From NCBI GenBank assembly GCA_035389185.1, contig DAOORK010000001.1, forward strand, positions 829,881 through 893,880: a stretch of 64,000 bases of DNA. Reading direction: 5' to 3'. This document shows, in pieces, positions 15,501-61,444 of the stretch. A model generated the notes under the pieces. The model saw only the letters and a list, made by a program, of their open reading frames with translations, ran no database searches and had not been told where the DNA came from. The first letter of the stretch is position 1. Each line of letters begins with the position of its first letter. Made by a program: the position numbers and the translations under genes. Source of the stretch: Candidatus Woesebacteria bacterium (GTDB lineage: Bacteria > Patescibacteriota > Microgenomatia > UBA1400 > MFAQ01).

Positions 15501-18453
15501 GATCGGCCATGGTTTCGAACCATCGGTTGGTGGTAAGGGACGTATCAATAGTAAAAGAGCGGGTTGTTGACCATCCAGAGTAAAGATTGGACCCAGACGG
15601 ATCGATGGCTCTGGTGCGATAGTAGTATGTGGTTCCGTTGGACAAGGCACTTTGAAAGGTATAGGAAACGGTGTCTTCGGAAGCAAAAGGGGAGGTGTCT
15701 GCAGGGTTGGTGATGTCGGCAAAACCAGCATCGGTGTCGGAAGATTTGGTGGTAGCACCAGTAAAGGCGGAAGTAGTGTCCCAGCTTATTTGATAAACGA
15801 TGTCATCACTTTCTGGGTCGGTGGCGGAGAACTGAATTTGAGGGGTGGTATTTGCCGTTTTAAGTTTGTCGTGAAGGTAGCTTGAAGAAATCGTGGGTGC
15901 ATTTGGTGGGGAATTGGCGACAATATCGTCAAAATAAAAGGTTGCCCCGGAAGTATCGCTTGTAAACTGAAAGGCAAATTGAGTGACCGCGTCTCTGTCT
16001 GCGGACGAGATACCGGAGATAGTCCAGGTTTTCTTCTCCCAGGTATCGGCAGAGTTTATAGTAATATCGTAGGTTTGTTCATCACTTGCGATTTCCCCAA
16101 ATTGGAATCTGGCGAAGCTCCCAGTATGATCTGACCTGACCCAGAATGTAAGATTGTTGTATGAAGAGATGTTGGTAGCTGTTTTGGTAAGAGTAACGGT
16201 ATCGTCAAGTGAGCCATATATACCGATAAAATTATCAATATAGAAGGTGTTATCAGCATCGGCATTCACAACAGTGATGATAATTTGATCAATGGCATCT
16301 TTATCGGCAGTACTGACTCCGGAGAGATCGATTGTGGCAGTCTGAAAAGTATTGGCAGAAGTAATATTGGGAGTGATTTCGGTTGTTGTGCCACCTGAGT
16401 CATGAAGCCCTACTTTTATGTTGCTACCGGTTCTGGTGGAACGAATGTCGAAGGTGACAGTATTAGAATTTGACAAATCAGCTGGGGAACCGATGGTACG
16501 AGTGAGTGTTTGATTCAGAGAACTGGTAGCTTGAGCAAATCCTTTAAGTGAATATGAACCTTGCGTTTTAATACTAGATTCAGAATATGACTGGAGAGTG
16601 TTATATGGGTATCTGACGATGATAATACCCGAACCACCTGCGGCACCGATTCCATATGAAGCATTATATCCAGCACCGCCTCCACCACCACTGCCGCGGT
16701 TGTCGGCTCCGGCAGTTGGAACCGAGCTGGCTGCACCACCTCCACCGTTTCCACCTCCACATTGTCCAGTTCCTGGTTCTCCATATAAGTTTCTTTGGGC
16801 GCCTCCACCACCACCACCGGCATAACAGACTGATGAACCACTTATGCTATAGGTGACACCTGTTCCTCCATTTGTACCGTGTGCTGTTGCATATGTATTT
16901 ACACCAGCACTTCCCATTCCACCTCCACCAGCACCACCATAATAACTTGTGACGGAATTTCCTCCATTGTATCCTTGGCTACCGGTACCACCTGTGTGAA
17001 CCTGTGATCCAGCACCACCTCCACAACCACCAGCCGCACCGTTTCCATTTCTTCCGCCAGCGCCTCCACCAGTGCCAGTGATTGAAGAAAAGACTGAGTT
17101 ATCGCCGTTGGTTGCCACAGCACCACCTCCACCAACAGTTGCTGTGATATTGCCTGCAGATATGGCAAAGGAGGAGTTATAGACGGCACCTCCAGCTCCA
17201 CCACCACCACCGGCATAGTTTATAGCGTAATATGAGTTTCCACCTCCGCCTCCGCCAACTACCAGCACTTGAACATTACCCGAGTTGGTAACTGCAAGGG
17301 TTCCGCTTGTTGTAAAGGTATGGATAATGTCTGTTCCTGAATAGGTAATGGTGCCACCGGTAGCGGAAAGGGCGTTGGTTGTGTAGGCTGTTTGTGCAGA
17401 TCCGTTAGTAGAGTATTCCATGAGGTCGATAGCGATACTACTTTGGGAGGTTGTCTTGACTTTGACTGAACTTGAGCCCTCTTCTTTAATAGTGGTTTCT
17501 TGAGAAACAACTGTATTGGTAGGATCAGAACTGACCCAGTCAGTAGACGTATCGGCGTTATCAATGACGAGGTCGATGACAACTGGATAGACACGGTTCT
17601 TGTCATTTAGCCAGGCAACACCTTCCGGGGTAAGGACTTTTGAAATTGTCAGTTGATTGCCTTTGGTTTGAACCTCATATTTGATACCGTTTGATGTCCT
17701 TGTTTTGTCGTGAAGTTCATAAAGAACCGGCGCGGGAATACTAAAGACGGTATGGTTTTTGGTATCAGTAAAAGTAAGGCTACCATCGGCGTTTTTTTGG
17801 TATTTTTGGTTGGTTTTAGCAATTTGGTCGATTTTTGTAACGAGATTGGCGGTGGATTTATCGTTGATAACAAATTCTTCAAGTAATCTCGAAGGAGAGA
17901 TGGTGTAGCGGAGATCCATTTGGGGAAAGATATTGGGGTAGGTGAGAGTGCTACCGTTAGCTACTGGCTGGTTGAAGGTGTTGAGCTCGCCAAAAGACTG
18001 GGTTTTTAGAGTGTAAAAAGAAATTTTCCCCAGATTGTTGGAAAAGACGATACTGCCTGAGTCGGTCGGTTTGTTTTTGAAATGGGTGGAAAACTCGTTG
18101 GTGACATTTTTGTAAGAGTAGGTACCAATGTCTTTGACAATGACGGTGTTGGGGGGAAAAGTAACAGGCTTGGTGATGGTGCGATTTAAGAGGAGGAATA
18201 GGATGGTTGATAAAATGGCACAAAACGTGAAAGAAACTAGTATTAATAGTACCACTTTAAGAAAATGAGGCTGGAAATGTCGTTTGAAATGGCTATTTAT
18301 TGGAAAGGTATTTCCAGAAGCCGTTTTAGGGGCATTGTAGAGACGAGCGTTTTTGAGGGTAGCCGGAATAAATTTGAGTCTTTTGGAAATAAGAGAGACC
18401 ACCGGAAAAGTGGAGACGCGCGAGAGTTTGATGGTGTGTCTCTTTTTAAACAC
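12574..18453 (-). CDS. Giant membrane-anchored surface protein (1959 aa) with Gly-rich domains and FN3-like repeats
   Basis: Single uninterrupted ORF with a GTG start and an N-terminal TM helix. It contains two ~400-aa internally duplicated units with (G)n-rich cores, three tandem ~107-aa FN3-like repeats and a terminal FN3-like domain. It lies directly upstream of the pilin gene on the same strand. Confidence 0.85.
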   Translation of the reverse strand: MFKKRHTIKLSRVSTFPVVSLISKRLKFIPATLKNARLYNAPKTASGNTFPINSHFKRHFQPHFLKVVLLILVSFTFCAILSTILFLLLNRTITKPVTFPPNTVIVKDIGTYSYKNVTNEFSTHFKNKPTDSGSIVFSNNLGKISFYTLKTQSFGELNTFNQPVANGSTLTYPNIFPQMDLRYTISPSRLLEEFVINDKSTANLVTKIDQIAKTNQKYQKNADGSLTFTDTKNHTVFSIPAPVLYELHDKTRTSNGIKYEVQTKGNQLTISKVLTPEGVAWLNDKNRVYPVVIDLVIDNADTSTDWVSSDPTNTVVSQETTIKEEGSSSVKVKTTSQSSIAIDLMEYSTNGSAQTAYTTNALSATGGTITYSGTDIIHTFTTSGTLAVTNSGNVQVLVVGGGGGGNSYYAINYAGGGGGAGGAVYNSSFAISAGNITATVGGGGAVATNGDNSVFSSITGTGGGAGGRNGNGAAGGCGGGAGSQVHTGGTGSQGYNGGNSVTSYYGGAGGGGMGSAGVNTYATAHGTNGGTGVTYSISGSSVCYAGGGGGGAQRNLYGEPGTGQCGGGNGGGGAASSVPTAGADNRGSGGGGGAGYNASYGIGAAGGSGIIIVRYPYNTLQSYSESSIKTQGSYSLKGFAQATSSLNQTLTRTIGSPADLSNSNTVTFDIRSTRTGSNIKVGLHDSGGTTTEITPNITSANTFQTATIDLSGVSTADKDAIDQIIITVVNADADNTFYIDNFIGIYGSLDDTVTLTKTATNISSYNNLTFWVRSDHTGSFARFQFGEIASDEQTYDITINSADTWEKKTWTISGISSADRDAVTQFAFQFTSDTSGATFYFDDIVANSPPNAPTISSSYLHDKLKTANTTPQIQFSATDPESDDIVYQISWDTTSAFTGATTKSSDTDAGFADITNPADTSPFASEDTVSYTFQSALSNGTTYYYRTRAIDPSGSNLYSGWSTTRSFTIDTSLTTNRWFETMADQFATDTYTGNATSSAVTDAVTVSVTPSNVDLMEYSSNSSAQSAYLASEITGTGGTISNVGVYKVHSFTTDGTFTPAFVGNVEALVVAGGGAGGVGTNSGGGGGGGLIYDSSHAVTATGYSITVGNGGQTASANGGNSVFNTLSAIGGGGGGSPGGTGKDGGSGGGGSANGTGLAGGSGTTGQGNAGGAGSGWYAGGGGGAGGVGTSAGSGTGGAGLNYSVSGTSVTYSVGGTSSSLSPNGAGTANTGMGGGGSQTSANFQGGSGIVVVRYVRNALQSFSESTIKTQGSYSLKGIASASASLNQNLISTPSSAINLSGSSSISFDLRSTRTGSNIKISIHDSGGTTSEITPNILSANAFQTVTWDISGVANANKDAIDQIIITIVNADADNTFYIDNFTATPFATGTITSTPITIANIDTNAVWNALEFTDEAGTDITYQIYYDVTGVPTIIPDSALPGNSTGFTSSPVSLIGLNPTTYPILYVKSNLSDSAGAPSLYDWGVTLNVPPNTPTLDFPADTATHVTRLAVLKTTATDTESDSLKYKIIICTDAAMSIGCKTFDQTVSATGWTAASYASGVQGVYTLQTPLDPHTDYYWRSYAIDPAGSNNWSSTQTTPYSFTTSEIPNIPTLDFPSDTATSVPLIATIKTTATDNDGDDIKYKIKICTDPGMTTNCQTYDQTVSATGWSAVSYASGVQGVYTIQTALNLGTVYYWKSYAIDPAGSNTWSSTQTTPYSFTTNQAPNVVTQDAPANSATEITLTTIFQITTTDVDSDYLRYKIHLCTNVFMTVNCQTFDQTSSQTGWTSQNAESSTAYTSGTQATYTVQTNLVPGTLYYWRAYAIDPAGTNTWSTAQSSPQTFTTKGNPSAPTSCTTVKASDNSSITINWTENATNEDNYQIWSSVNGDLATLVETLSADTAQYVDSPISSNNTYIYLIRALRFDGANTLYSSWCTTSPSNTSTGSLYFDSLKMEGVKIN
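12890..13980. repeat. Three tandem ~360-nt repeats encoding FN3-like modules inside the giant gene 12574..18453
   Basis: Protein repeats PNTPTLDFPADTAT...SFTT, PNIPTLDFPSDTAT...SFTT and PNVVTQDAPANSAT...TFTT. The DNA segments ~12960-13140, ~13320-13500 and ~13680-13860 are visibly similar. Confidence 0.6.
14320..15410. repeat. Internal duplication unit 2 of the giant gene (paralogous to 16235..17425)
   Basis: Protein DLMEYSSNSSAQSAY...GSGIVVVRYVRNALQSFSESTIKTQGSYSLKG...ADADNTFYIDNF parallels unit 1. The DNA is ~80% similar by eye. Confidence 0.55.
16235..17425. repeat. Internal duplication unit 1 of the giant gene
   Basis: Protein DLMEYSTNGSAQTAY...GSGIIIVRYPYNTLQSYSESSIKTQGSYSLKG...ADADNTFYIDNF. 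Confidence 0.55.
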
Positions 18454-18621: not shown

Positions 18622-21600
18622 TCATTTTGTTTCGACTAACCAGTAATTAAAGGAGATATCATAACCATTGTTGCCGGTGCCGGCGAGGGAAACAGTGAAA
18701 CCAATACCGTCTGTTTTTGATTTAACGTAAAGTACTTTTCCTTTGGTATCTGAGGTTGGAGTGACATAAATTAGAGTTGTTGGAGTAACTTTGGTGTTCA
18801 AGATGGAAATCTCGGTTGTGCCTGCGATAATAGTTGAAGTGCCGATGGTGGCATTGGAATTTGTTTGACCGGAAACAGTAGCAAGAGGGTCATTACCCGA
18901 AGCAATCACCAAACCATTGGTAGTAAGTTGGGCAAAATTGGCCGATTGTGAGGCTATAGTGGAAGAACCAACTGCAAGAGAGCCAGAAACAGAGGCCGTC
19001 TTTGTATCTAAACCTTGAGCAAAGATTGTACCCGTTATTAGGAGGTCGCCGTTGATTAATACTTTTCCGTCTGGATAGAGAGTCATGAGATTGGCAAGTA
19101 GGTGGACTGGTTTGTCGCCTTGGGGTTGGATAAAGAGTTCGTTATCAAAGCTGGAGAGAGCGTTAGTGAAGATGGCGCCGTTGGTCATGAGGTCGTTGGC
19201 AATTAGAGTATGGACACTTAGAGAATTGAGAGCGAGATCCGAAGGAATGACGGCCGAAGTGGTGGCCAAAGGCGAAAGAGACAGGGGATCGGCAGAAGCA
19301 CTGGCGTCTGCGGAGTAGTTTAGGAGAGAGTTGTAACTGCCGTATCTGGCTTGAAGGTTGGCAAGAATGGCAGATGCGGTGGAGTATTTGTCGTTGAGGA
19401 GATTGATTTGGGAATGAAGGGCGTCGATGGTTTGACCTTGGATGTTGTCGGCGTAAAGAGTGCCGGAAATGGTGGCGTTGATCACTTTGAGCTCATCAAT
19501 ATTGGCAATTGGGGAAATAAGAGTGTCGCGGACTGTAAGATTGTCGACGGTTAGTTCTTTGATGACACCGACACCGGCTTGGAAGTTGGCGGCTAAAATA
19601 TTGCTGAAGATGCCGATGTTTTCGATTGCCTCACCGGCGGCGTTGGTAATTTCGTAACTGGCGTTTTGGGCCGCGACTTTGGCAGTGAGAGTATAAGCGT
19701 TGAGATCGGCGATAGCCGGAGTGAGGAATCCTCCGGTACCGACCAAGATGAGAACGGTGTCTTTGCCATTTCCTGGACTCCATGATTCAAGGGCAGTACC
19801 GATGGTTTTTTCACCGATGGTAGCCTTTTTGGCCTTGCCGGGTTCGTTGGAGGAAGTGAGGTAGTCGCCATATTTGATGGCGGCTGAGTCGCTAGCGATT
19901 TTGACGGGGACTCTTCCCGCTAAGGCTAGGAGACGGCGGTCATCGGCTTCGATACCGAGGGTTTGGCCAGCATTGGTGGAGATGACACCGAGGAGACCAG
20001 AGTCATTTTTGGAGTTTGATTTACGGAGGATTGGAACTTTGTAAGAATCAAGTTCTCCGGTGACAGCAACGACATCGCCTGGACCAATACTCTGATCATT
20101 GACACCATAGTACTCAGCAAGGTCAGCACCAAAAACAATGACGTCGAGTCTGAGTTGCTGAGCTAGGCCAGTGTAGTTGTAGAGCTGGACACTGTTTGAG
20201 TCGTCGACGTGTGAAATCTTGTAACCGTCGTTGTAGTCGATGGTGACATTGTTGAGTTTTGGCTGGAAGGCGGTATTGATAGTTGTAAATATCGCCCGAT
20301 ATTGAATGTAGTTGTTGGGTGTGGAAGTGATGTTTGAACCTGAACTGGTGGTATAGACTTTTTCTACTTTGATATTATCAAAATGAATTGTGTTCCAAGG
20401 ATTGGTAAGGTTGGTTATTCTTAACTTAGTAATAGCATCTTTACTTGTGGAGGCAATGTCTGAAAGATCCCAGTATATTTTTTGCCAGGTATTGGTAGCA
20501 TCTATGGTTATAGTTTCTTCCTGTTCTGTTGCCGCAGACTCTCCAAATCCGATTTTTACAGTATTACCTGAAGCAGTAGCATAGACCCAAGCTGTTAGAT
20601 AGTCATATGCAGAGATATCGGTTGCATTTATGGTAGCTTCGGCATAACCTGAAGCGGGTACCGTATTAACAAACTGGGTTGTATTTCCGGCTGTTGCTTC
20701 ATCTTCATCTTCGAACTGGTTGACATTTCGAGTGACTGAACCATCGGATACTGTGGCATTTGTACCAGTCCAGTCGGTATGGGTGTCGGCAGTTTGAAGG
20801 GACAGATAATTGGTTCCATCGACTGCAGGTTTCCAAGCTTCCCACGTTCCGTCGGTCGGATCGGTAGAATTACCTGTTCTTGTTTGGAAAGTAATTTTGC
20901 CGTAGGCTGATGTAGTAGCTTCCCATCTGATTTTGTCTAGAGTAACAGCGTTGGGAGTTTCAATAGGTGCGGAGTGGTAAATACCATATGGATAGTAAGG
21001 TTGTTGGGTATAAGTAGCGGTGGGGGATGATGTTGATCCTGTGTAGGAGGAAGTGTAGTAAATTGCAGTACGTCCGTTACCTCCATTTCCGCCACTTCCT
21101 AATGTTGCAGAACCACCGGTTCCTCCTGTGGCGGATACTAAATTTGACCCAAGGGTGAGAGTACCTGCATTGAGAAGTACAGAGCCTCCAGCACCACCAC
21201 CACCACCACCCTGATTGCTTCCTCCTGCGGTGCCGTTATTGCCGTTTGCACTAATTGTACCGGATACAGTTATACTGTTTGCCGATATTGCAATTATTCC
21301 ACCACCATTAGCACCTGCTTTCGGAGGATAAGTGCTGGTATAGAAACCACCTCCTGCTCCGCCTCCAGATCCAAAAAATAGTGTTGTTAAATTGGTATTG
21401 CCATATGTTCCTCCACCTCCACCACCAGCACCGCTGACGGATCCTGAGGCTAATCCTCCGTCACCGGAGGCATTTGTACTGCCGTTTCCACCAGAGGTGA
21501 CTCCGCTACCTCCGTAACCAAAAGAACCGTAACCACCACCACCACCACCACCACCATACCAGGTGTTAGTGGATCCACTCATATCTCCACCTCCACCACC

Positions 21601-24600
21601 AGCCCCTCCCGCGGTTGCAGATCCTGTTCCTGGGGCAGCATTGTGAGCACCTCCACCGCCACCACCACAAACACCATTGGTTCCTGGGCGATCTGCACCT
21701 GTAAGGTAAGATGCTCCAGTTCCACCGCCACTTTGAGAACAAAAAGCCTCACCTCCGTATGGATAACTTACAGCAATAGGACCTCCCACAAACCCGATTC
21801 CGTTTGCATTTATTGTGCCCGATACTGAAACTGTACCATTTGCTCTAAAGAATAAAACTCCACCCTTAACTCCATCCCAGGCACTGGGGGTAAAATTTTG
21901 ACTTGCATTTACAGTTACATTTGTATAATTGGGAACTCTTTGAAGCATAACTCTTTGTGTTCCGTCAAGGATTCCAAGGTTTGAATCATCGGAAGAGTTG
22001 TCCCCGTAATTTTTAGTTTTAGAAGTTGTAAAGGTAATTGTGTTTGTAGATATTGATGCAATCCTTAACGTCTCGTAATTACCAGTGTTAATGGATGCAG
22101 TGCTGGTTCCTTGAAGATTTATGAGTAATATTTCGTCACCAGCAACCAGACAGCCTGTAGAAGGGGTAGTGGAAAGAACAGCTGTATTGGTAGTTAGGGT
22201 CGTAACTGAATAATTAACAGCATCGCCACCATCGGCACAGGAACGTCCATTTATTAGGCTAGTGGTGTTGATGTTGGTGCTTGATGAAACCGTAATGGCT
22301 CCGTCTGCTCCGGTACCCGTATCAACCGATGGGGAGAGTTCGACATCGGTGAGTCTTGATTGAGTTCTGGTTTTGGAGTTGCCAATGGCATCGAACTGGT
22401 TTTGTAGGCTCTGAATAATGTTGTGGGTGAAATTGCTGATATTATCCCAAGCACTTGTGAGGGTGTTGTAGACCCAGCCGGTGACGGAGATGTCATTATT
22501 GGTACCTCCGCCGTAGGCGCTGTTGTAGGCCAAAGTGAGGGATGCAGCATTGGCTACACTGGCTGATGAGGAAGAGTATTTGGTCATGTCGAGAGCGAGA
22601 CGGTGGAAAGCACTGGTGCCATCGGTGTTCAGATAGAGATCGTTGTAGGTGTTGTCGTAGTAAAGAGTACCTCGAGTGGTGGCAGTTGGAGCGGCTGTTT
22701 GAGGAGTAAAAACGGCGGCAATACCAATGTTTAGGGTGGCTGAAACACTGGCATCACCGACAACTTCAAGCTTGTTACTGCCACTGAGGTTGGTGATACT
22801 GCCGACCTTGAGACCGCCTGAAGTGTGCCAGTCGCCATTGGCTAGGATATTATTGGCTATAGAGATTGATTCTGTACCCGTGCCTCCTTGATAGATACCT
22901 TCGGTGAGATAGAGATCTTTCCAGGCATGGCCTGAGGATCCAAGATGGTCTACGTTGGTTGTTTGGGGGAGGATACCGCCATTTGTTTCTAAAGCGAAAG
23001 TGTAGCCGCCGACGGGTTGGTCTATGGCTGTGTTGAAGCCGATGGCGATGGGATTCATGAAGAAAGTGTTGTAGACGGAATCACCTGAGAGACGAATTTT
23101 TGCTGAGGAAGTGGCACCGTCGTTGGTGGAAGCAAAAAGATTGATAGAGTCAGACCAGTTATTTTTTGTGTAGATAATGCCTTCAGAAGTTCTGTTGAAG
23201 TAACCTCCAAAGCTTTGCCATGCTGAACCATCATAATAGAGAGGGGCATTCGCGGTAGTACTATATATAAGGGAACCTGATCCGAGGGCTACCGGTTGAC
23301 TGGTATCAGCGAAATTTCCGAGAATAAGTTGGCCGCTTATGGTGGCGTTGAGGAGATTTTTGAGACTATCTCCGGAGAAGTCGATGAAACCTGAAGCGGC
23401 GTTGAATGTAAGATCACCGGTACTATTGCTAATAAGAGAGTTGGTACCAGCAATTTCTAATTTTGCTGAAGGAGTAGCCGTACCAATACCAACATTACCT
23501 GTACCAGAAAAAGTGAAGTTAAAGCCGTCGAGAGCAACATCAGTATTAGAGGTAAGTGTTCCCCCAAGTGAAACTGTGTTGCCGAGACGGGTTAAGCCAT
23601 TGGTAAAAGTAAGAGCTGCTTCAAAAGAATTTTGATCGTAGGAAGTTGAGACGATTGATGACCCATCATAAGCGAGAAATTTTCCGGAAGTAAAAGTGGT
23701 ATTGTTTGTGCCTCCATTTAGAATTGGAAGAGTGCCGGTGACATCTGAGTTTGCCAGATTAACCGCTGATGAAGAAAGGTTGCCGAAAGAGTCAGAGTGA
23801 ACAATGCCAGTACTAAGAGACGAAAAACGAACTGAACCTGAAACAGAAGCACTGCCAAGAACATCGAGGGTTGCAAGTGGTGTAGTAAGACCAATTCCAA
23901 TTTGTCCGGCAGAATCAATGGTCATGGCCACACTAGAACCAAGGTCGTTTATGGAGGCGTCACCTATTGAGTTGGTATCCGTAAACTTTGCGAGGCGATT
24001 GGTGGTGCCATTGATGTTGGATAGAGGTGCAAAATATGAAGCATGTTGGCCATCGAGAAGATCGGCATTGAGGTTTTCGTTTAAGGTTGTTGAAGTGATT
24101 ACAAAAGGAGACGAACCTGTAGCGAGGGTCGATGTAAGCTGACCACTCATATTTATGGTAGTGATGCCGGAAACGGCTCCTGAAGTAGAGATGTCCCATG
24201 ATGAAGAATCAATAGCAACTGTGTTTGAGCCGCCGCCTATAGAGACTGCTCCGGTTGAGGTGCCGGTGTTGATATTGGTTGTGTAATTTGAAGAAGCATT
24301 TAAATCTATATTTCCACCAGATGAGGTGATGATGCCTGTGTTGGTAATACCGGCTACTGCGGCTATAGCTCCGGAAGAGTTTACTTGGAAAAGATCTCCA
24401 TCACCAACAGTAAATAACGATGCGGGGGTTGTGTCACCGATACCAAAATTGCCGGTGTTAATCCAAGAATTTTCACCGGCAGTGCCAGCAAGATGTACCA
24501 AAGCAGAAGAAGTGGCTGTGGCTCCGAGATTAAGAGAGTCGGTGATGTAAAGGGGAGCTATCGAGCCAGAGGTTCTTTGCCAGTTACTTCCTCCTCCGGT

Positions 24601-27600
24601 GCCTGTCGGTGCATCGATCCATTGGACTCCAGTGCCTGTTGTAGAAAGAACTTGTCCCGAGGTACCGGCACTACCATTGTCATACAAAGCGCCAGTAAGA
24701 TTGATGTCACCGACAACATCAAGATCATAGGCGGGATTGGCAAGTCCAATACCAACTTGGGTGTTGGCTTCGTTTGCTGCATTAAAAGCGATATCTCCAG
24801 TGTTGGTGTAAATGGCATAGTTGTTGGTAGCCGCGCCGGAAATACTTCCAAGATAGATACCATATTTTGAAGTACCGACAGCACTGGTCATGGCGGCAGT
24901 CTTGATACCATACATAGTTGTAGGGGAGTTATAGGCACCCAAATCGGCAATACTCAAACCAGTTAAATTAGCAAAGGTTCCGGTACTTGAGCCATAGGTG
25001 CTGAGATTGGCAATGACGCCATTGGTGGTACCACCGGTGCCGATGATACCGATACCATAGTCGAGACCTCTTAAATTGGTGACTGTACCACTACCGGATT
25101 GATATGCTCTACCACCAACGCCAGCAACATTATTTGTGTAGTTTTGGGTTCCAGCAGCATAAATGTAGGTGAGGTTGCCAAAGCTTTGATCGCCATCACT
25201 TGTGGCTGAGTTTACGGTATAGGTTGTTTTCAAACCGGCATTTGTGGCACCAGCGTTGACAGCTCTGGTTGGGACACTGACGATTCTACCAACACCATCA
25301 ATAGAAACAAGAGTACCTCCGCTACTATTTTGCCATTCTTGGAGATTAGCTGATTGGCCAGTGGTACCTTTGACTGTGAGGGGAATGTTTGTGGCTAGGG
25401 AGGCGGACATAGTGGAAGCTCCAAGTGTTTTAAGACCTCCGGCGATGTCTAACTTAACAGTGGGGTTGACAGTGCCGATACCAAAATTGCCAGAGTTATT
25501 GATCCAAGAATTCTCTCCAATCGTACCGGCTAGGTGTACCAAGGCAGAAGAAGTGGCAGTTGAACCTAGATTAAGGGAGTCGGTGATGTTTTTTGGTGCT
25601 AGGGAACCAGAAGTTCGTTGCCAGTTACCAACAGTCGAAGTATCTACCCATGAGACTCCTGTTCCAGTCGAGGTTAAAACTTGAGTGGCTGTACCCGCAC
25701 TCCCTGAGGTACGTAAAGCACCAGTGAGGTTAATGTCTCCAGTGACATCTAGGGCATATGAGGGAGTAGTGTCTCCAATACCAAAGTAACCAGTGTTAAT
25801 CCAGGAGTTTTCTGCAGCAGTGCCTGCAAGGTGCACTAGAGCTGAGGCTGTAGCTGTGGCTCCGAGGTTAAGAGAGTCGGTAATGTTAAGAGGAGCGAGT
25901 GAACCATCTGTACGTTGCCAGAGGTTACCGGAAGCGGCTGAAATATCAACACAGGTGAGAGTGTCGCCAACTGCTTGGATAGCTTGTCCGGCAGGACAAG
26001 CTGAAGGATAGTTTTGGAGTTTTGTCCAGTCGAGTTCACTGATCTCGGTATTGTTGATCTCGCCACTCGGGAGAGAAACTGTGCCAGAGGAAACAGTGAG
26101 GCCGGTGAGGCCGCTTAATGCGCCCGTGGCAAGTAAATCTCCATTACTGGCAATGGTGAATCTGGTGATTCCGGCTGAAGATGCGGAAAAAATGGAGTCC
26201 GTGCCACCATTAGTATTAATAAGGGTACGTCCATTGACACCAACAATAAAACGGTCAGTTTCGGTTGATCCTGAGGTGAGAGCGAGAAGATTACCCGTGG
26301 CCGTGTCGTTGCCGACATAGCCGGAAATTAGAGAACCGGAAGTGAGATTGGCATTTTCGATTCGGAAAGTGTCTGTTGTTGTGGTTGCGCCGAGAATCTG
26401 CACTTGTCCTCCTCCAATTGCATCTGGCTGAAGAATAATATCGCCACCGGAGTTGGCGGTAGTAGAAATGGTAATTGCTTGACCATTTAGGGTAAAAGTT
26501 CCGGAAGTAGAGTTTATGGTAGGGGAAGCAGCGGCAATATTGATGTCTCCATTTTCATCGACTACAGGAATAGTGTTAAGAGTAGCGGCGGCGGATGCCG
26601 GATACCCCTGGAGGGTTTCGGAGTTTAGGGCGTAACCAACAGTGGCGATTTGCTGGCGGGGGGTAAGGGTTTCGGATCCAACAGTGACCTCTAAGAAAAC
26701 GTCACGATTTTCCGTGAAAACTGTACTAGCGATTTCTTGACCGCAAGTGCCGTTTCCGATGAGAGTATTAAAGATACCATTGGAGTCTGGAGTGATCGAA
26801 CAAGTGTTGGAGGTGTAGAGCTGAGTACCACTGGTAGCTGCGTTCCAGAGTTTGAAGATAACGTTTACGGCAGTAACGATTGGAGTACCTGAAGAGTCTG
26901 TGAGTCGGCCTTGAAATGAAAGCTGTCTTCTGGGTACAGTGGGCACGGCAGCGGAGGACGAGGGGGCTTGCTTGATGATTTGGTTGTAGCCAAAGATAAC
27001 CATGGCTGAGGTGGCTAGAGCAAGTATGGCCAGATGAATATAGGGAGTAAAAGGAAGGGAGTTATAGCGATGGTAAAGAAGAACAAGAGGGTGTCTGGAA
27101 GCCTTTTTTGGGGTATTTCTTTTATCTCTGAGCCTTTCCATCCAAGAAAGAGGAGCTAGATGGGGAACTTCAATCTTGATTTCAAAAGGGTTAGCGGGGA
27201 GATATTTTTGAGAAAAACAATACTTGGCGAACTTTTTGATTGAAGATTGACGACGATTTATGACAGATGTACTAGTGTGACTAAGTTTGAGATAGGTAAT
27301 GTAGGTATTTAGATGAGATTCACTTAAAATATTCTCTAATCTTTGATCTAAGAAGGGGGTTTCGTTAGCACTCCACGCAAAGAAGTGATTGAGGTCAGAA
27401 ATGTAGTTTTTGATTGTTGAATAGGTCTTTTTTTCTCTAGCCAAAGAAAGCTTAAAATGCTCAAGAATCTTACTGAGTATAGGTAGGGCATTAGAGACAG
27501 GAGCAGAGTCGGTGTTTTCAAAAGAAAAATGTGGTTTTGGGGAATGGTTTAGATTAGAAACAGAACTTTGAAGGCCAAACTTTGAGGAAAGAAAGGTAGA

Positions 27601-35310: not shown

Positions 35311-35916
35311 GTGGAGATAAAAACAATATGGGGATACTTGAAAAATTCAACCGGTCTGGATCGGTTTTTGCTCGGAGTAATCATTGTTGGACTAGTAGTT
35401 TGTTCAATTAGCGTTTTTAGAGGCATTCTAATAAGCCGTCAGGTTCAAGTTGAGTATTTGAGTAACGGAGATGTGTCTTCCGGGAGTATAACGAAGGTAT
35501 ACGTGGATATTGAAGGGGCGGTAGTTTATCCGGGAGTCTATGAATTGAACCTCGGATCAAGAATTAAAGATGTTTTGGTGTTAGCGGGTGGTTTATCTGA
35601 AAGTGCTGATAGAGATTTTTGTGAAAAGAATATTAATATGGCAGAACAAATTAAAGATGGACAGAAGATTTATATCCCTTCTGGGGGAAATAGTGATGCC
35701 GATAGGGGGTATTTTGAGGCTAGTATTCAAAGTAAAAAGATTAGTATAAACACTGCAAGTATCAGTGAGTTGGATACCCTTTGGGGTATAGGTGAGTCTC
35801 GCGCCGAAAGTATTGTGAAAAATAGACCGTATCAATCGGTTGATGATTTGGTTACAAAAGGAGTATTGCCAAGTAGTATTCTGGAAAGAAATAGAGAGCT
35901 GTTGTCAGTTTTTTAA
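35311..35916 (+). CDS. comEA: Competence protein ComEA (DNA-binding helix-hairpin-helix)
   Basis: A TM anchor plus a C-terminal tandem HhH (SINTASISELDTLWGIGESRAESIVKNRPYQSVDDL). It lies immediately upstream of comEC. The start is uncertain: GTG at 35311 or TTG at 35338. Confidence 0.8.
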   Translation: MEIKTIWGYLKNSTGLDRFLLGVIIVGLVVCSISVFRGILISRQVQVEYLSNGDVSSGSITKVYVDIEGAVVYPGVYELNLGSRIKDVLVLAGGLSESADRDFCEKNINMAEQIKDGQKIYIPSGGNSDADRGYFEASIQSKKISINTASISELDTLWGIGESRAESIVKNRPYQSVDDLVTKGVLPSSILERNRELLSVF

Positions 35917-40322: not shown

Positions 40323-40396
40323 TTTTAACCTCCTCTGTTAAAGTTCAAACTTGGAGTTGATAATAACATAGGAATAGGGTATTTACGAAATTGTTG

Positions 40397-40469
40397 TGGA
40401 CCTGAGGGGAATCGAACCCCTTACCTCCGCAATGCGAATGCGGCGCTCTACCAGGTGAGCTACAGGCCC
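40397..40469 (-). tRNA. tRNA-Ala (anticodon CGC)
   Basis: Cloverleaf by eye: acceptor GGGCCUG/CAGGUCC with G3:U70, D-arm GCUCACCUGGUAGAGC, anticodon stem-loop CCGCA-UUCGCAU-UGCGG, T-arm GGGGUUCGAUUCCCC. CCA is not encoded. Confidence 0.8.
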
Positions 40470-40547
40470 ATTAGGTATATTTTATCAATAATAAGTTCGT
40501 TTTGATTGTGTCATTCACATAGGGGAGTTCTATGGTACGATTGAAAT

Positions 40548-41243
40548 ATGAAAATATATTCTAAAATAATAAAGTCCGAGGCGAAAAAGTTAAGAGAGAA
40601 AGGGAAAACGAGCCGAGAAATAAATTCCATACTGAACCAACATATCCCCAAAAGCACATTTACCGGTTGGTTTAGAGGTATTAGGCTGACTTATGAACAA
40701 AAGAAAAGGATATCGTTATTAAACGCGAGAAAATTGGATTTGGCAAGAGTAAGGGCCGTGAAGGCGAATAAGGTGATACGAAATAGATTTTTAGTGTCTC
40801 TTGACGAAATAAATAGACCTATTAGTAAAAAAATAAGAGGTACACAGACAGCAAAGATCGCCTTGGCGATGCTTTGTTTTGGCGAGGCGTCAAAATACGG
40901 GAGTGGATCTGTATTTTCTCTTGGAAATACAAATCACAAGATAATTACGCTTTTTATTAAATTACTTAAGGTTTGTTTTGACATAGATAACAGTAAATTT
41001 AGATGTACAGTAATGTGTCGAGCGGACCAAAACACCAACGAATTGGAAAAATATTGGCGAGAGATAACAAATATTCCAAAGAATCAGTTTTACAAAACAA
41101 GAATTGATCCTCGGTCGATAGGAAAGCCGACAAAGAAGCCGGGATACAAAGGTGTATTGAAGGTCGACTATTTGGATACAAAAATTCAGCTGGAGCTGGA
41201 ATCTCTGGCTAATTTGCTTTATAATCAAGCAGTTAGTTTATAG
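40548..41243 (+). CDS. Hypothetical protein with an N-terminal HTH-like region and a degenerate LAGLIDADG-like segment; possible homing-endonuclease relic
   Basis: 231 aa. The N-terminus (KKLREKGKTSREINSILNQHIPKSTFTGWFRG) is HTH-like. The central IALAMLCFGEASKYGSGSVFSL resembles a LAGLIDADG block with substitutions. It is flanked by tRNA-Ala genes in inverted orientation. Confidence 0.55.
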   Translation: MKIYSKIIKSEAKKLREKGKTSREINSILNQHIPKSTFTGWFRGIRLTYEQKKRISLLNARKLDLARVRAVKANKVIRNRFLVSLDEINRPISKKIRGTQTAKIALAMLCFGEASKYGSGSVFSLGNTNHKIITLFIKLLKVCFDIDNSKFRCTVMCRADQNTNELEKYWREITNIPKNQFYKTRIDPRSIGKPTKKPGYKGVLKVDYLDTKIQLELESLANLLYNQAVSL

Positions 41244-41245
41244 AA

Positions 41246-41318
41246 GGGCCCGTAGCTCACCTGGTAGAGCGTTCGCATGGCATGCGAAAGGTAGTCGGTC
41301 CGAGTCCGATCGGGTCCA
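41246..41318 (+). tRNA. tRNA-Ala (anticodon GGC)
   Basis: Acceptor GGGCCCG/CGGGUCC with G3:U70, anticodon loop AUGGCAU, and an atypical T-loop UCCGAGU. It starts 2 nt after the stop of CDS 40548..41243. Confidence 0.65.
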
Positions 41319-41321
41319 CAA

Positions 41322-41678
41322 ATGGAAAAAAGTATTGAGAAACCAGAGGAGTTGAATAGACTTGAGGAATTACAAGAGGCAATTAAGAGTGCACCACAGA
41401 AAGTTCAGGCTGAATTTGACAAAAATTTAAATCCTTGGCTGTCTTGTCTGATTAGTAGTGTTGAGGTGATTGATATTTATTTAAACAGTTCGAAACTAAA
41501 GACTTTATTGCCGGAAGAAAAAATTGAGTCTGCAGCCGAAAAGTTGAACTGTCTGAAGAAGAAAATTTCATTATTGAAGGAGCAATATCCTAATAGGGAA
41601 ACGATATTACTAGAAGAATTGCAGAACGAATTACTGCGAGAATTAGATGTTCTTCGAGACGAAGAGACAGAAAAATAG
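41322..41678 (+). CDS. Hypothetical coiled-coil protein
   Basis: 118 aa, rich in E/K/L heptads, sitting between two tRNA genes. Confidence 0.5.
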   Translation: MEKSIEKPEELNRLEELQEAIKSAPQKVQAEFDKNLNPWLSCLISSVEVIDIYLNSSKLKTLLPEEKIESAAEKLNCLKKKISLLKEQYPNRETILLEELQNELLRELDVLRDEETEK

Positions 41679-41718
41679 ACGTTTTGTTTTCATCAAAATT
41701 GAGATAAAATTACTAGAA

Positions 41719-41791
41719 GGGCCCGTAGCTCACCTGGTAGAGCGCCGCATTCGCATTGCGGAGGTAAGGGGTCCGAGTCCCCTCAAGTCCA
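41719..41791 (+). tRNA. tRNA-Ala(CGC)-like second copy, degenerate or chimeric (possible pseudogene)
   Basis: The D and anticodon arms are identical to 40397..40469. The first 30 nt, including the upstream TAGAAG, are identical to the tRNA-Ala(GGC) context at 41241. The T-loop is UCCGAGU, and there are two C:A mismatches in the acceptor stem (5' GGGCCCG, 3' CAAGUCC). Confidence 0.5.
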
Positions 41792-41796
41792 CATTA

Positions 41797-53680: not shown

Positions 53681-53762
53681 CAATTATCTATTTTACCAGC
53701 AAAAAGTCAGCAGTTCCATTTAAGGACACTATATATATGGAACTCTGGTACAATTTGACCAA

Positions 53763-54770
53763 ATGTCATTTTCGTTTTCGAAAAAAATTGCAATTGATCT
53801 GGGAACAGCCAACAGTTTAGTTTATGTTGTGGGTGAGGGAGTAGTGTTGGAAGAGCCGACCGTGGTCGCGGTATCTTTGACGGATGGAAAGGTTCTGGCT
53901 GTCGGAAAAGATGCTCAAAGTATGTTGGGGAGGACGCCAGGAAACATAAAGGCGAGTAAACCGATGAGGGAAGGTGTGATAGCCGATTATGCGGTGACTG
54001 AAGCCATGTTGAAATACTTTTTGCGTAAAGTCGGGGCATATGGATTGGTGAAGCCGGAAGTAATGATATGTGTACCTGCAGGAGTAACTCAAGTAGAACG
54101 AAGAGCGGTATTAGGTGCGGCGATGGAAGCCGGAGCTCGAAATGCATATCTTATTGAAGAACCATTAGCAGCGGCGATTGGTGCAGGAATACCAATATCC
54201 GAACCATCTGGAAACATGATTTTAGATATGGGTGGCGGTGCTGCCGAGGCAGCAGTGATTTCATTAGGCGGAGTGGTTACCTTTAAGAGTGTGAGAGTGG
54301 CAGGTAATAAAATTGATGAAGCCATTATGAGATGGGCCAGAAGAAAACACAATTTAGTGATCGGCGACCAAACTGCAGAACAGATCAAAATAAAGATTGG
54401 TTCAGCAATGCCTGTGTCCAAGGAGGAAATAATGGAGGTAACAGGACGGGATAGTATTGCCGGTTTGCCACGACAGGTCACAATCTCATCAACAGACGTT
54501 TTTGAGGCCATGAGAGAGCCTTTGGGAAAAATAATTCAGATGCTGAAATCGGTAATGGAAGAAGTACCTCCAGAGCTGTCAAGCGATATTATTGACAAAG
54601 GGATCGTAATGAGTGGGGGAACGGCTATGCTTCGAGGATTTGACCGTTTGATTACTACTGAAACAGGCGTTCCGGCCTTTGTGGCAGAAGATCCGCAAAG
54701 GTGTGTAATAAAAGGTATAGGGATAGCAATTGAGAATATAGATGTTTATAGGGGTAGCCTACGACGTTAA
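53763..54770 (+). CDS. mreB: Rod shape-determining protein MreB
   Basis: IAIDLGTANSLVYV...EPTVVAV, plus the actin-fold phosphate 2 and adenosine motifs (DMGGGAAEAAVISLGG; VMSGGTAMLRGFDRL). A TGGTACAAT box lies 9 nt upstream of the ATG. Confidence 0.9.
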   Translation: MSFSFSKKIAIDLGTANSLVYVVGEGVVLEEPTVVAVSLTDGKVLAVGKDAQSMLGRTPGNIKASKPMREGVIADYAVTEAMLKYFLRKVGAYGLVKPEVMICVPAGVTQVERRAVLGAAMEAGARNAYLIEEPLAAAIGAGIPISEPSGNMILDMGGGAAEAAVISLGGVVTFKSVRVAGNKIDEAIMRWARRKHNLVIGDQTAEQIKIKIGSAMPVSKEEIMEVTGRDSIAGLPRQVTISSTDVFEAMREPLGKIIQMLKSVMEEVPPELSSDIIDKGIVMSGGTAMLRGFDRLITTETGVPAFVAEDPQRCVIKGIGIAIENIDVYRGSLRR

Positions 54771-56193
54771 TATCTAAATTACTTCTGCATCAATCCTTTT
54801 TATTTATCTTGTCAGATTTTGATTTAGAGTGCTAATTTTGTATTTAGGTTCAATAACTAGTTTTGGAATATTATTTGTATAGGGTAATCACGATTGATGA
54901 TACATGTATATAGTATAAAAATAGAGGAAGTCAAAAAAAAATAATTTTTTGGAAAATATTGATGGAGATATGAGACATTGTTTGTTGTTAGAAACAGATA
55001 TATAAAATAATGAATTTACTTTATTTTGTTTTCGACATAGGAAATGTCAGTTGTTTGGTCTTTTGCTATTTTTCACAAAGATATCGATACCCCCTAGATA
55101 TTATCTATTTATAAAAATATTTCTTTTGGATATACCCATAGGTAGGGGTATCTGTGCATTGAGATTTTTAAATAGTTCTCTATCGTGTACCCGGGGTGGG
55201 GTATGGTTTGAAATGAGAAATGTTCGTTTGTGATTGCTAGTTTTTAACAATGGTTATTTTGTCAGGGGGTATGGGGGTATACCATTTCGATGGTAGAGGT
55301 TAATGAAAGATATCGTTGATTTTTTAAAATAATCAATATATTAGCTTTCATATGTAATATATGATACAAAATAAGGTCTTTGATATTTGTATTTAAGGCT
55401 TGACAAGTGTTTTTAGAGCGCTATCTAGTTCTATTTGGGCCAGTAAATATTGGGTTTGCGTTCATAACGGTCTTTTGACTTTTAAACAATGTCGACGGCT
55501 GTTTGCTTTGATACTTTGACAATAAAAGGCTTTGTCTTTGAAATGTAATTTTGGCCAATAGAGAAGATCATCTTAATAGTTATGAAGATAAGGGATCAAG
55601 TCAGAAAGTGATTGACTTTATATATTTTTCCGGATTTGAATATATTGTGAAAAACGAGATTTTTATATATTTTTAGGTTGAACAAACTATATCAAGCGAT
55701 TTGGATATATAAGTCTAAATATGATTATTTTTGTCTAAAAAAACAAGAGTTTATATAAATATTTGAGAGGATTAGAATAAGTTAATATAAGACATAATTA
55801 TTTATATCATATATTTGATACATTCATTTATTTGAGCATAAAAATAGAGGTGAAAAAGTATACAATAATTTACGAAAGGAATCACCTATGACCGATTTGA
55901 ATAGAGCCAAATAACTATTAATATGATAAAAATTGACCGTATAACATATAAGATAAGAGAAGATACCTTATATATATTCAATTTTTTATGAATTCCGATA
56001 AAATTTTCAAGTTTGATGTTTTCACTGAGCATTTTTTTGACCGAAATTTACTCAATTTAACATCATGAAGGCATAGAAAGGGTTGATACAGAGGCCCAAA
56101 ATAAAAAAACTGCCTGTTTGGCAGTCTACTTTTCTAAGTGATAACGTTTTATGGATTTAGGCACGATTTTGAGGAAGCATTTTTGAATGAATC
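54771..56193. other. 1.4-kb AT-rich gene-free region with iteron-like GGGGTAT / ATACCCC repeats
   Basis: No ORF of 60 aa or more. The motif recurs at 55085 (ATACCCCC), 55132-55155 (ATACCCATAGGTAGGGGTAT, inverted pair), 55196 (GGGGTATGG) and 55268-55285 (GGGGGTATGGGGGTATACC). There is a terminator-like hairpin at ~56108-56135. Confidence 0.5.
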
Positions 56194-56235
56194 TTGTATG
56201 GTTTATTTTTACTGTGTGCCTGCTACAATACTATC

Positions 56236-57036
56236 ATGAGATCTGACGTTTTGGGCCTTCCGGTGGACGTTTTAAATAGACGGGATGTGAGTGAAAAAAT
56301 AAGTAAATGGATTGAGAATGACAATGATTTGAAGTTACTTATTACTGCGTATAGTGAATTTTTTGTAAAAGCTCAAAGTGATAAGGAGTTTTTTGAAGTC
56401 ATGAAGTCGGCTGATATGGTGACGCCTGATGGTGTGTCAGTTTTGGCGGCAGTGAGTTATCTTCGCCAAGCAAAAGGAAGAACGTTATTGGGCAGATTGG
56501 CTTGGGGATTGAAAACCGGCGGAGATATCTTGTCTGGGAAGGTGGGAGAAACAGTAACCGGGGTATGGTTATTTGAAGAACTTACAAAAATGGCGGCTGA
56601 AAGAGACTGGAAGGTATTTCTGCTTGGTGGATGGGGTGGAGTGAGCGAGAGAGTGGCTAAAAGGCTTCTAAAACGGTTTCCAGGACTAAAAGTGGCCTAT
56701 GACTCAGGCGAAGAGAGAGTTGGGACGGATGAGAAGAAAAACAGAGAGGTAATAGACAAGATAAATAAATTTCGTCCAGATATTTTGTTTGTGTCTTACA
56801 ACCCGATTAAACAAGAGAAATGGTTAGCTAAGCACCGCCACGAATTGAAAGTAAAAATAGGTATTGGAGTTGGTGGGACTTATAACGAATATATGGGGGA
56901 GTTCAAGAAGGCTCCACGATGGATGGAAAAGATGGGTTTGAAGTGGTTGTGGAGGGTATGGGTCGAACCAAAGAGGTTTGGTCGGATAATGAAGGCAGTG
57001 TTTGTTTTCCCTTGGTTGGTGTTTCGAAATTCATGA
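56236..57036 (+). CDS. WecB/TagA/CpsF-family glycosyltransferase
   Basis: MVTPDGVSVLAAV...FLLGGWGGVSERVAKRL...LFVSYNPIKQEKWLAKH...IGIGVGGTYNEYMGE matches Glyco_tran_WecB. The start is the ATG at 56236, 7 nt after a TACAAT box (leaderless-like). Confidence 0.75.
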   Translation: MRSDVLGLPVDVLNRRDVSEKISKWIENDNDLKLLITAYSEFFVKAQSDKEFFEVMKSADMVTPDGVSVLAAVSYLRQAKGRTLLGRLAWGLKTGGDILSGKVGETVTGVWLFEELTKMAAERDWKVFLLGGWGGVSERVAKRLLKRFPGLKVAYDSGEERVGTDEKKNREVIDKINKFRPDILFVSYNPIKQEKWLAKHRHELKVKIGIGVGGTYNEYMGEFKKAPRWMEKMGLKWLWRVWVEPKRFGRIMKAVFVFPWLVFRNS

Positions 57037-60654: not shown

Positions 60655-60903
60655 TTAGGAGTTATTGGGGCTGGGGTTCATGCCAAGCATCCAAAGAACC
60701 TGTTCTTTTTTGTAGCGGCGGTCTCCTCGGGAATTGATGCGGATAGCCGGGAGTTTGCCGCGTTTGCCCCAGCGTTTGAGGGTAAGAGTGGAGACACGGA
60801 GGATTTCGGCGACTTCGGAGACAGTCAGAAGGTCGGGAAGATCGTTGAGATTTAATTCTCTCTTGGTTGGTTTAACGATTGGGTTTTGGTCTTGATTGTC
60901 CAT
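60655..60903 (-). CDS. Excisionase-family / MerR-like HTH DNA-binding protein (HTH_17-like)
   Basis: LLTVSEVAEILRVSTLTLKRWGKRGKLPAIRINSRGDRRYKKEQV matches the excisionase/Xis-type helix-turn-helix pattern. Confidence 0.65.
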   Translation of the reverse strand: MDNQDQNPIVKPTKRELNLNDLPDLLTVSEVAEILRVSTLTLKRWGKRGKLPAIRINSRGDRRYKKEQVLWMLGMNPSPNNS

Positions 60904-61444
60904 GTCTGATACACAAGTTAACAGATAGTTTTAGTAACGTCAAGGGGAAGTTTTGCACATCCCATTGACATTTATATCTTTGTGTGGTATATTATAAGTC
61001 TTCCCAATGGGAATGCACCTTGATCGTAATCCAAACAGTTCCCCAAATTAACCTGCGCCGGGGAGAAAGGGAATCGATGTTCACCTGACTTTAGGGATGG
61101 GGTGACGCCCCGTACACTAGTCAACTGAAAAAAATAAGTGAAGAAGATCCCTGTTTTTGGCCAACCGGAGGGCACAGATCGCCCTAAGGCCAAAAAAAAT
61201 AAAGCAGAAACCGCTTTATGGCTGGGTAAGGTATATTCCTGCCAGGCCACACACTCTAAAATAAAGGAGTTCTAAGTGCGAAGATTTCTTCTGCTTTTCC
61301 TTCGGCGCTCATTGCGCCCAGTTTAACCTTAAGTACAGCGCATACACAGAGATTACGAAAAAACAAATTGTTGCATCAGGCCCCCGAAAGGGGGCTTTCG
61401 TTTGGCAAAAAACCCACCCTTTTGGGGTGGGTTTGACGTTTGAT

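Follow-up and report, generated by a model that had tools for sequence, protein, structure and literature searches.

What is a 1,465-nt run of AT-rich DNA without any recognisable gene doing between mreB and a glycosyltransferase gene in the chromosome of a Patescibacterium? Members of the Patescibacteria (Candidate Phyla Radiation, CPR) have ~1-Mb genomes with very little non-coding DNA, and their gene regulation is almost unstudied. The locus lies in a stretch of 64,000 nucleotides of contig DAOORK010000001.1 (positions 829,881 to 893,880 of the forward strand, assembly GCA_035389185.1), hereafter the window, whose closest species-representative genomes are metagenome-assembled genomes (MAGs) of Collierbacteria (Microgenomates, Patescibacteria), and whose identical sequence is present in three independent anaerobic-digester metagenome assemblies, one of which has it on a 462-kb contig. 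An earlier note, made from the sequence of the window, had proposed that the gap between mreB and the following gene, here called wecG, was a replication or plasmid-like origin or, failing that, the promoter region of a small RNA (sRNA). With a probability of about one half, we consider this gap to be a cis-acting, transcribed and protein-bound non-coding control region specific to Collierbacteria, and not an origin; our searches detected no gene for a structured RNA there. On this best-supported reading, the control region arose in the Collierbacteria ancestor and its AT-rich DNA has been kept for spacing or composition. No description of the locus was found in the literature.

Conservation of the mreB–wecG gap

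Loci around MreB homologues were taken from species-representative genomes and metagenomes, the bounds of the gap being set by tblastn, and 21 non-redundant Collierbacteria loci with MreB at least 75% identical (observed 76–100%) formed the ingroup. All 21 carry a gap poor in open reading frames (ORFs), 1,273 to 1,750 nt long (median 1,465; coefficient of variation 0.10) and with a GC content of 25–44%, whereas 60 loci of sister Microgenomates hold only 225–631 nt (~430 nt) between mreB and wecG. This junction is a variable spot across the Microgenomates, since 25 of 85 more distant loci accommodate a GT4 glycosyltransferase gene (~340–400 aa) between the two genes and the other 60 carry the short AT-rich spacer. 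Examples of GT4 placement, in positions of the outgroup gap, are 20–1213 in L031, 10–1122 in L079 and 210–1340 in L039.

Most of the gap DNA is unalignable, even against relatives whose MreB is 92–94% identical. Within it, the ingroup gaps share ~20 short islands whose order is fixed; they are specific to the clade, none being found in the outgroup spacers, and 29 8-mers are common to at least 8 of 13 gaps where ~5 were expected. In the window itself, the gap (GC 0.28 against ~0.43 for the window) is indeed the longest ORF-free stretch, as first noticed, with 1,423–1,465 nt depending on the start of wecG, whose ORF opens at 56194 and whose likely ATG is at 56236. Every ORF of the gap is of 60 aa or less in a six-frame listing. 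Of the two flanks initially named, mreB was correct and the "wecB-like" gene was not, the right-hand gene belonging to the WecG/TagA/CpsF family (PF03808). Transcription of mreB, which has no terminator of its own, is directed into the gap, whose two flanking genes are therefore not divergent. The flanks and the islands outside the repeat cluster and promoters are as follows.

53746, plus strand: extended −10 element of mreB, TGGTACAAT, 8 nt before the ATG (promoter scan)
53763..54770, plus strand: mreB, left flank (Pfam MreB_Mbl PF06723, E 8e-132)
54771..56235, no strand: non-coding AT-rich gap, 1,465 nt, GC 0.28, position and length conserved in 21 loci
54785..54794, plus strand: conserved box CTGCATCAAT, clade consensus TGTATCAAG, fixed at 15–16 nt after the mreB stop
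54874..54885, plus strand: conserved box TTTGTATAGGGT, consensus TTwTATArGGT
55300..55640, no strand: very AT-rich spacer, kept in presence and approximate length and not in sequence, even at 92–94% MreB identity
55676..55715, no strand: mid-gap island GGTTGAACAAACTATATCAAG...GGATATATAAGTC, clade form a palindrome CTATATCA-N10-TGATATAG followed by G(G)T
55783..56089, plus strand: moderately conserved zone with islands TAATATAAGAC (55783), TATACAATAAT (55859), AGAGCCAAATAAC (55903), GTTTGATGTTTTCACTGAG (56011) and AAAGGGTTGATAC (56077)
56155..56166, no strand: box ATTTAGGCACGA, in most relatives present as its reverse complement TCGTGCCTAAAT directly after the promoter-like element P2
56236..57036, plus strand: WecG/TagA/CpsF-family glycosyltransferase gene, right flank (Pfam PF03808, E 4e-43; gene call)

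As to the box at 56155–56166, the ATTTAGGCACGA orientation occurs in this genome, L089 and L007, and TCGTGCCTAAAT in L009, L011, L012, L013, L014 and L017, while a partial inverted copy, GTGTGCCT, abuts the −10 element of wecG in this genome (56214–56221). Such a distribution suggests that a short segment was inverted or duplicated, or else that the site works in either orientation.

While collecting these loci we observed that many public MAG records titled Pseudomonadales/Gammaproteobacteria, Spirochaetia, Clostridia or Bathyarchaeia (L008, L012, L013, L017, L019, L024, L064 and many others) encode an MreB 60–93% identical to that of Collierbacteria/Microgenomates, in the same synteny. Their titles are probably taxonomic mislabels, or the bins are contaminated.

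Operator-like palindromes and predicted promoters

The cluster of GGGGTAT repeats from which the origin proposal had started is real, with five copies in 55087–55280 (within 194 nt) plus one GGGTAT, the two strands of the window carrying 14 copies of the heptamer in all where 5.9 were expected. The tandem and the inverted pair singled out in the earlier note were both located, the former at 55265–55283 and the latter, ATACCC-ATAGGTAG-GGGTAT, at 55132–55151. The term "iteron-like" does not fit them: they are palindrome half-sites of 7 bp at irregular positions, in inverted and direct orientation and 8–68 nt apart, and Tandem Repeats Finder (TRF) reports for the tandem a period of 8 with 2 copies. 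On the basis of sequence, the cluster looks like an operator array, composed of the following elements.

55070..55076, plus strand: TTTTCAC box, present in 17 of 21 orthologues, 10–12 nt (mode 11) before the first palindrome
55086..55101, no strand: operator-like site 1, GATACCCCCTAGATAT, clade form ATACCC-N4-6-GGTAT = TAC-X8-GTA, the right arm being degenerate here
55130..55152, no strand: operator-like site 2, ATATACCCATAGGTAGGGGTATC, clade form ATACCCCATGkGGGTAT(GGTAT), 44–45 bp after site 1
55188..55206, no strand: operator-like site 3, TACCCGGGGTGGGGTATGG
55265..55283, plus strand: tandem half-sites, GGGGGTATGGGGGTATACC

The core of the clade keeps a fixed order, made of TTTTCAC, 11 nt, site 1, 44–45 bp, site 2 and further GGGGTAT half-sites; its deepest members display a single site with an extra half-site, e.g. 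ATACCCCTTGGGGTAGGGTAT. Strict G-tract palindromes number 16 in the 30.9 kb of ingroup gaps, where they occupy 15 of 21; the outgroup spacers, 63 kb in total, have 2. Strict TACCC-N2-8-GGGTA sites occur 13 times in 257 kb of Collierbacteria DNA, 9 of them in the mreB–wecG gap. The arms of these palindromes are kept as sequence, with uncompensated mismatches and half-sites that persist alone, and therefore behave as DNA recognised by a protein and not as RNA stems. A G-quadruplex was considered and rejected, as four G-tracts within loop distance are not found consistently across the orthologues. The only strict copy of the palindrome in the window outside the gap is a perfect ATACCC-TTTG-GGGTAT inside comEA (35775–35788), which a regulon search found compatible with chance (~0.26 expected).

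A literature search with the literal site sequence returned only unrelated primer matches; the closest known architecture is that of the type 2 operators of the CsoR/RcnR (DUF156) family. Their consensus is ATATACCCCTNAGGGGTATAT, and the copZA site of Streptomyces lividans is ATACCCCCTAGGGGTA, with a TAC-X9-GTA dyad and, at copZA1, extra external GTA half-sites beside the core site (PMC3902906). The gap palindromes share with these operators a pseudopalindrome made of a C-tract then a G-tract, the TAC/GTA dyad and AT-rich flanks; GATACCCCCTAG of the window equals the left half and centre of ATACCCCCTAGGGGTA from S. lividans copZA/csoR, and extra half-sites next to a core site, as at copZA1, are also found in the gap. 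There are also differences. The CsoR dyad is X9, whereas those of the gap are mostly X8 (six sites and the inner dyad of four sites scored as X13), with X9 in only two; and CsoR sites lie at metal-efflux and csoR promoters, whereas here three to five sites are clustered mid-gap between mreB and wecG, the nearest conserved promoters being 240 nt upstream and 950 nt downstream. No copA, copZ or rcnA was found in the window, and no CsoR/RcnR-family gene was recovered by tblastn with four CsoR/RcnR/FrmR-type queries, over 1.48 Mb that represent small parts of the genomes. The search for a neighbouring regulator gave no Pfam match at relaxed thresholds in 10 small ORFs, and no candidate on inspection of the neighbouring ORFs of ~90–120 aa. 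By analogy, the gap palindromes resemble CsoR/RcnR operators and may work like them; we do not class them as members of such a regulon.

On either side of the palindromes, three promoter-like elements recur across the orthologues, all on the plus strand.

54809..54838, plus strand: promoter-like P1, TTGTCA-N15-TGC-TAATTT, with an extended −10, offset by 38–39 nt from the mreB stop in 18 of 21 orthologues
56118..56147, plus strand: promoter-like P2, TTGGCA-N15-TGA-TAACGT, its −35 being the right arm of a hairpin; 19 of 21 orthologues
56221..56238, plus strand: wecG promoter (PwecG) TGCTACAAT, extended −10, 6 nt before the ATG at 56236

P1 and P2 follow a common form, TTGnCA-N15-TGn-TAnnnT, in which the spacer is invariant in length and freely variable in sequence (18 of 21 orthologues for P1 and 19 of 21 for P2). 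This composite has only five occurrences in the 64 kb and is found in 2 of 60 outgroup spacers. The predicted transcription start of P1 is near 54845, with no start codon after it. P1, P2 and PwecG are predicted promoters that fit the sigma-70 layout, in which a −35 and an (extended) −10 are set 16–18 nt apart with a conserved spacing; a sigma-54 reading of TGGCAG was rejected, no −12 TTGC element being present. Upstream of wecG, a TAnAAT hexamer lies 6 nt before the start in most orthologues, and so short a distance between the extended −10 and the ATG implies a leaderless mRNA. The motif TGnTA[ACT]A[AT]T is ~4.5-fold enriched in the non-coding 13% of the window (TGnTAnAAT occurs, for example, at 53746, 53698 on the minus strand, 35296 and 56221). 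These motifs typically sit 6–9 nt before start codons, as for wecG, mreB, the gene at 35311 and one that encodes a PEGA domain. Transcription in this genome thus seems to be usually leaderless and driven by extended −10 promoters, which would be its common signal for the start of a gene.

Competing readings and a proposed mechanism

Replication origins and plasmid iteron origins are, like the gap, AT-rich and ORF-free, with several short repeated motifs and a conserved position between genes. The gap differs from them in having no skew switch, no enrichment in DnaA boxes and no initiator gene. GC skew is positive across the whole 64 kb without a sign change, and at all 21 orthologous loci the values for the gap and for each flank stay between +0.07 and +0.5, which argues against an origin, since an origin would require such a change; CPR genomes have an ordinary bidirectional GC skew. 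DnaA boxes, whose search had been recommended along with the origin proposal, occur at chance level (8 matches to TTWTNCACA in the window against 7.5 expected), two of them being in the gap on opposite strands, ~580 nt apart. The window contains no parS site and no dnaA, dnaN, rep, parA or parB gene. Composition does not discriminate, with GC at 0.22–0.28 in the gap and 0.16–0.35 in the short outgroup spacers. Plasmid iteron origins consist of phased direct repeats of 17–22 bp, whereas those of the gap are 7-bp palindromic half-sites; no direct iteron of 17–22 bp was found, and the sole tandem array of the repeat cluster is 8 nt × 2. There was no similarity to plasmids or phages (blastn in distant mode, 72,556 plasmids and 50,697 phages), and an 18-base pattern scan of viral sequences gave five matches, all by chance and in coding-like contexts. 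Skew, DnaA boxes, parS and gene content thus led us to reject a replication origin, and together with the replicon searches they leave the combination of iterons and DNA-unwinding element, from which it had been proposed, without support, removing a false origin candidate. The broader idea of a chromosome-maintenance element, be it an origin (secondary or plasmid-derived included) or a centromere-like or nucleoid-anchoring site for a palindrome-binding protein, would account for the general look of the region, its short conserved boxes and its two TTWTNCACA matches; with mreB reading into the gap on top of these negative results, we hold it to be very improbable. Decay offers another explanation, in which the gap is the remnant of a lost GT4 glycosyltransferase gene and otherwise neutral DNA: such a gene occupies exactly this position in 25 outgroup loci and, with its spacers, measures ~1.06–1.65 kb, which matches the length of the gap. 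The GT4 profile, for which the outgroup loci give E 1e-146 to 1e-164, nevertheless reaches at best E 0.5 in six frames of the 21 ingroup gaps, its weak matches being mostly on the wrong strand, and a length coefficient of variation of 0.10 across a deep divergence of ~1-Mb genomes, with ~20 islands held at exact spacing, reveals constraint. Neutral decay is thus a most unlikely account of the present gap; a gene remnant could be the evolutionary origin of its DNA, and would not explain its maintenance. Even less probable are very small or fast-evolving protein genes hidden in the gap, such as leaderless micropeptides or type I toxins. Leaderless expression appears common in this genome, and several ORFs of 20–60 aa, some of them hydrophobic, are present; against this, neither here nor in relatives does the predicted start of P1 or P2 transcription coincide with a start codon, and the small ORFs are conserved neither in frame nor in position even between closest relatives and match no family. 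By tblastx, the gap showed similarity only to its closest relative, in all frames, and the orthologous gaps have no ORF in common and no Pfam match in their longest ORFs.

The main rival, unlikely in our view and yet to be taken more seriously than any of the above, is a functional but unstructured RNA: a leader or long non-coding RNA of up to ~1.3 kb, or several sRNAs, produced from P1 and perhaps from internal promoters. These RNAs would act without a stable conserved fold, for example through repeated GGGGUAU/AUACCCC motifs binding proteins or RNAs, or by serving wecG as an extended 5' leader. It is favoured by the orientation of the conserved P1, which faces the gap and is followed by no ORF, by the common strand of the three conserved promoters, by the missing terminator of mreB and by a hairpin near the right end of the gap, whose plus-strand form could end such an RNA in this genome.

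56109..56125, no strand: hairpin ACTGCCTGTTTGGCAGT, terminator-like mainly on the minus strand, left arm unconserved

This hairpin, described initially as a terminator, does exist; its value as a plus-strand terminator is weak and is not kept in relatives. On the minus strand it has the make-up of a terminator (8-bp stem, U7 tail, −15.3 kcal/mol, z −2.7), while on the plus strand the stem is of 6 bp with a poor tail, CUACUUUUCU (−11.7 kcal/mol, z −1.4). Relatives keep only its right half, TTTGGCAG (TTTrGCAG), as primary sequence, the left arm varying without compensation, and this conserved half is the −35 element of P2. Folding energies against shuffled sequences gave a mean z of −0.22 on the plus strand and −0.29 on the minus strand (288 windows, 12 orthologues), the few strong values sitting on the palindromes and being symmetric between strands, in contrast with the stretch at 60995–61440 of the same window (z −4.65). 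RNAalifold returned a consensus energy of 0.00 in four conserved blocks on both strands, and Rfam 15 gave no match to the gap at gathering thresholds and only chance-level hits in an E-value scan (E > 2). No covariation was seen between the arms of the palindromes, relatives do not preserve the hairpin fold, and the GC content lies 12–15 points under the genome average, which functional RNAs seldom show. Large structured non-coding RNAs (ncRNAs) such as OLE, GOLLD, ROOL, HEARO and RNase P also form long, conserved ORF-free loci where short islands are split by variable sequence; unlike them, the gap has no thermodynamic or covariation signal, no Rfam match and a GC content far below that of its genome. 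From the alternative that had been kept in reserve, a regulatory locus or sRNA promoter, the regulatory part is supported, through two promoter architectures of invariant spacing and an operator-like cluster; neither a structured sRNA nor a conserved terminator was found.

The control region that we favour builds on what these loci display directly, namely conservation, length, ~20 ordered islands, promoter- and operator-like features, and no signal of origin, RNA structure or coding. From this we infer protein binding, the kind of protein involved, the RNAs made and the regulatory output, in the following way. RNA polymerase would start at P1, 39 nt past the mreB stop, enter the gap in the rightward direction and, some 240 nt further on, meet the TTTTCAC box, the two TAC-X8-GTA palindromes 44–45 bp apart and the further GGGGTAT half-sites. 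An oligomeric protein that recognises specific DNA sequences, like those acting on CsoR/RcnR-type operators, would bind these sites and, once bound, would block or modulate transcription through the region, or organise the flanking AT-rich DNA. Further right, the second type of palindrome (CTATATCA-N10-TGATATAG), P2 and the leaderless promoter would set the expression of the wecG envelope-glycosylation operon.

Several points weigh against this proposal. The cognate DNA-binding protein was not found, in a weak test that covered a small part of any genome, and metal-efflux genes, the usual targets of CsoR, are absent from the neighbourhood. The dominant dyad is X8, against X9 in characterised CsoR sites. 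The operators lie ~950 nt from wecG and overlap no convincing promoter, P1 and P2 being themselves predictions, and the retention of ~700 nt of unconserved AT-rich DNA is left unexplained by a simple operator/promoter model. The product may also be an unstructured or fast-evolving RNA, and the region may have a chromosome-organising role. Along these lines, we put forward with little confidence that the gap represents a new, clade-specific cis element of Patescibacteria, either a long foldless non-coding transcript or a nucleoprotein landmark (centromere-like or nucleoid-organising) built on the TAC-X8-GTA array near mreB; in either form, selection would keep ~1 kb of AT-rich DNA for its length and composition, whatever its sequence.

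As it stands, the locus is best classed as a promoter/operator control region, unusual in its size, in its conservation within a streamlined genome and in carrying a type of operator outside its usual gene context. Large multi-input intergenic control regions are known upstream of csgD-csgB and flhDC in Escherichia coli. Like them, the gap is long AT-rich non-coding DNA before envelope or surface genes, with several promoters and sites of the kind bound by transcription factors; it differs in being 2–3 times longer, in a streamlined ~1-Mb genome, in being conserved as a unit class-wide, and in having no identified regulators. With its 1.3–1.75 kb, it is one of the clearest candidate regulatory hubs in uncultured Patescibacteria, and P1, P2 and TAC-X8-GTA provide concrete testable sites. 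If a CsoR/RcnR-like protein binds them, the reach of this family would widen from metal efflux to cell-envelope genes; if another protein does, the sites would constitute a new recognition motif.

Other features of the window

Beyond wecG, a gene for a MerR/HTH_17-type DNA-binding protein of 82 aa (60658–60903, minus strand) was missed by the source annotation, which calls instead an 81-aa ORF on the other strand that is spurious. At 70–88% identity across Microgenomates loci, the protein is more conserved than MreB, and its gene is usually convergent to wecG, forming a conserved block mreB – spacer – wecG – (reverse) HTH gene. Here and in L007 the last two genes of this block are separated by additional, inserted genes. 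The HTH gene was rejected as a regulator specifically linked to the gap, being equally conserved in outgroups without a long gap.

Next to it, a near-perfect promoter, TTGACA-N14-TGGTATATT (60965–60993, plus strand), is followed by ~440 nt without a convincing ORF. This stretch (60995–61440) folds much more stably than shuffled sequences, on the plus strand with −152 kcal/mol (z −4.65) and on the minus strand with z −3.0. A strong hairpin closes it and is shared with the convergent gene whose end is at 61445. It has no Rfam match, and we regard 60965–61440 as a candidate for a new structured ncRNA. Its DNA is not conserved in L007, where a small ORF equipped with a ribosome-binding site takes its place, so that this position seems to vary from species to species.

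Elsewhere in the window, three tRNA-Ala genes lie within 1.4 kb (40396–41792), two with anticodon CGC on opposite strands and one with GGC, small ORFs being interleaved. Two adjacent giant ORFs on the minus strand, 12574–18453 (1,959 aa) and 18622–27873 (3,083 aa), have almost no family annotation. The 610-nt AT-rich gap upstream of them (27874–28483) holds one of the five full composite promoters of the P1/P2 form, on the opposite strand.

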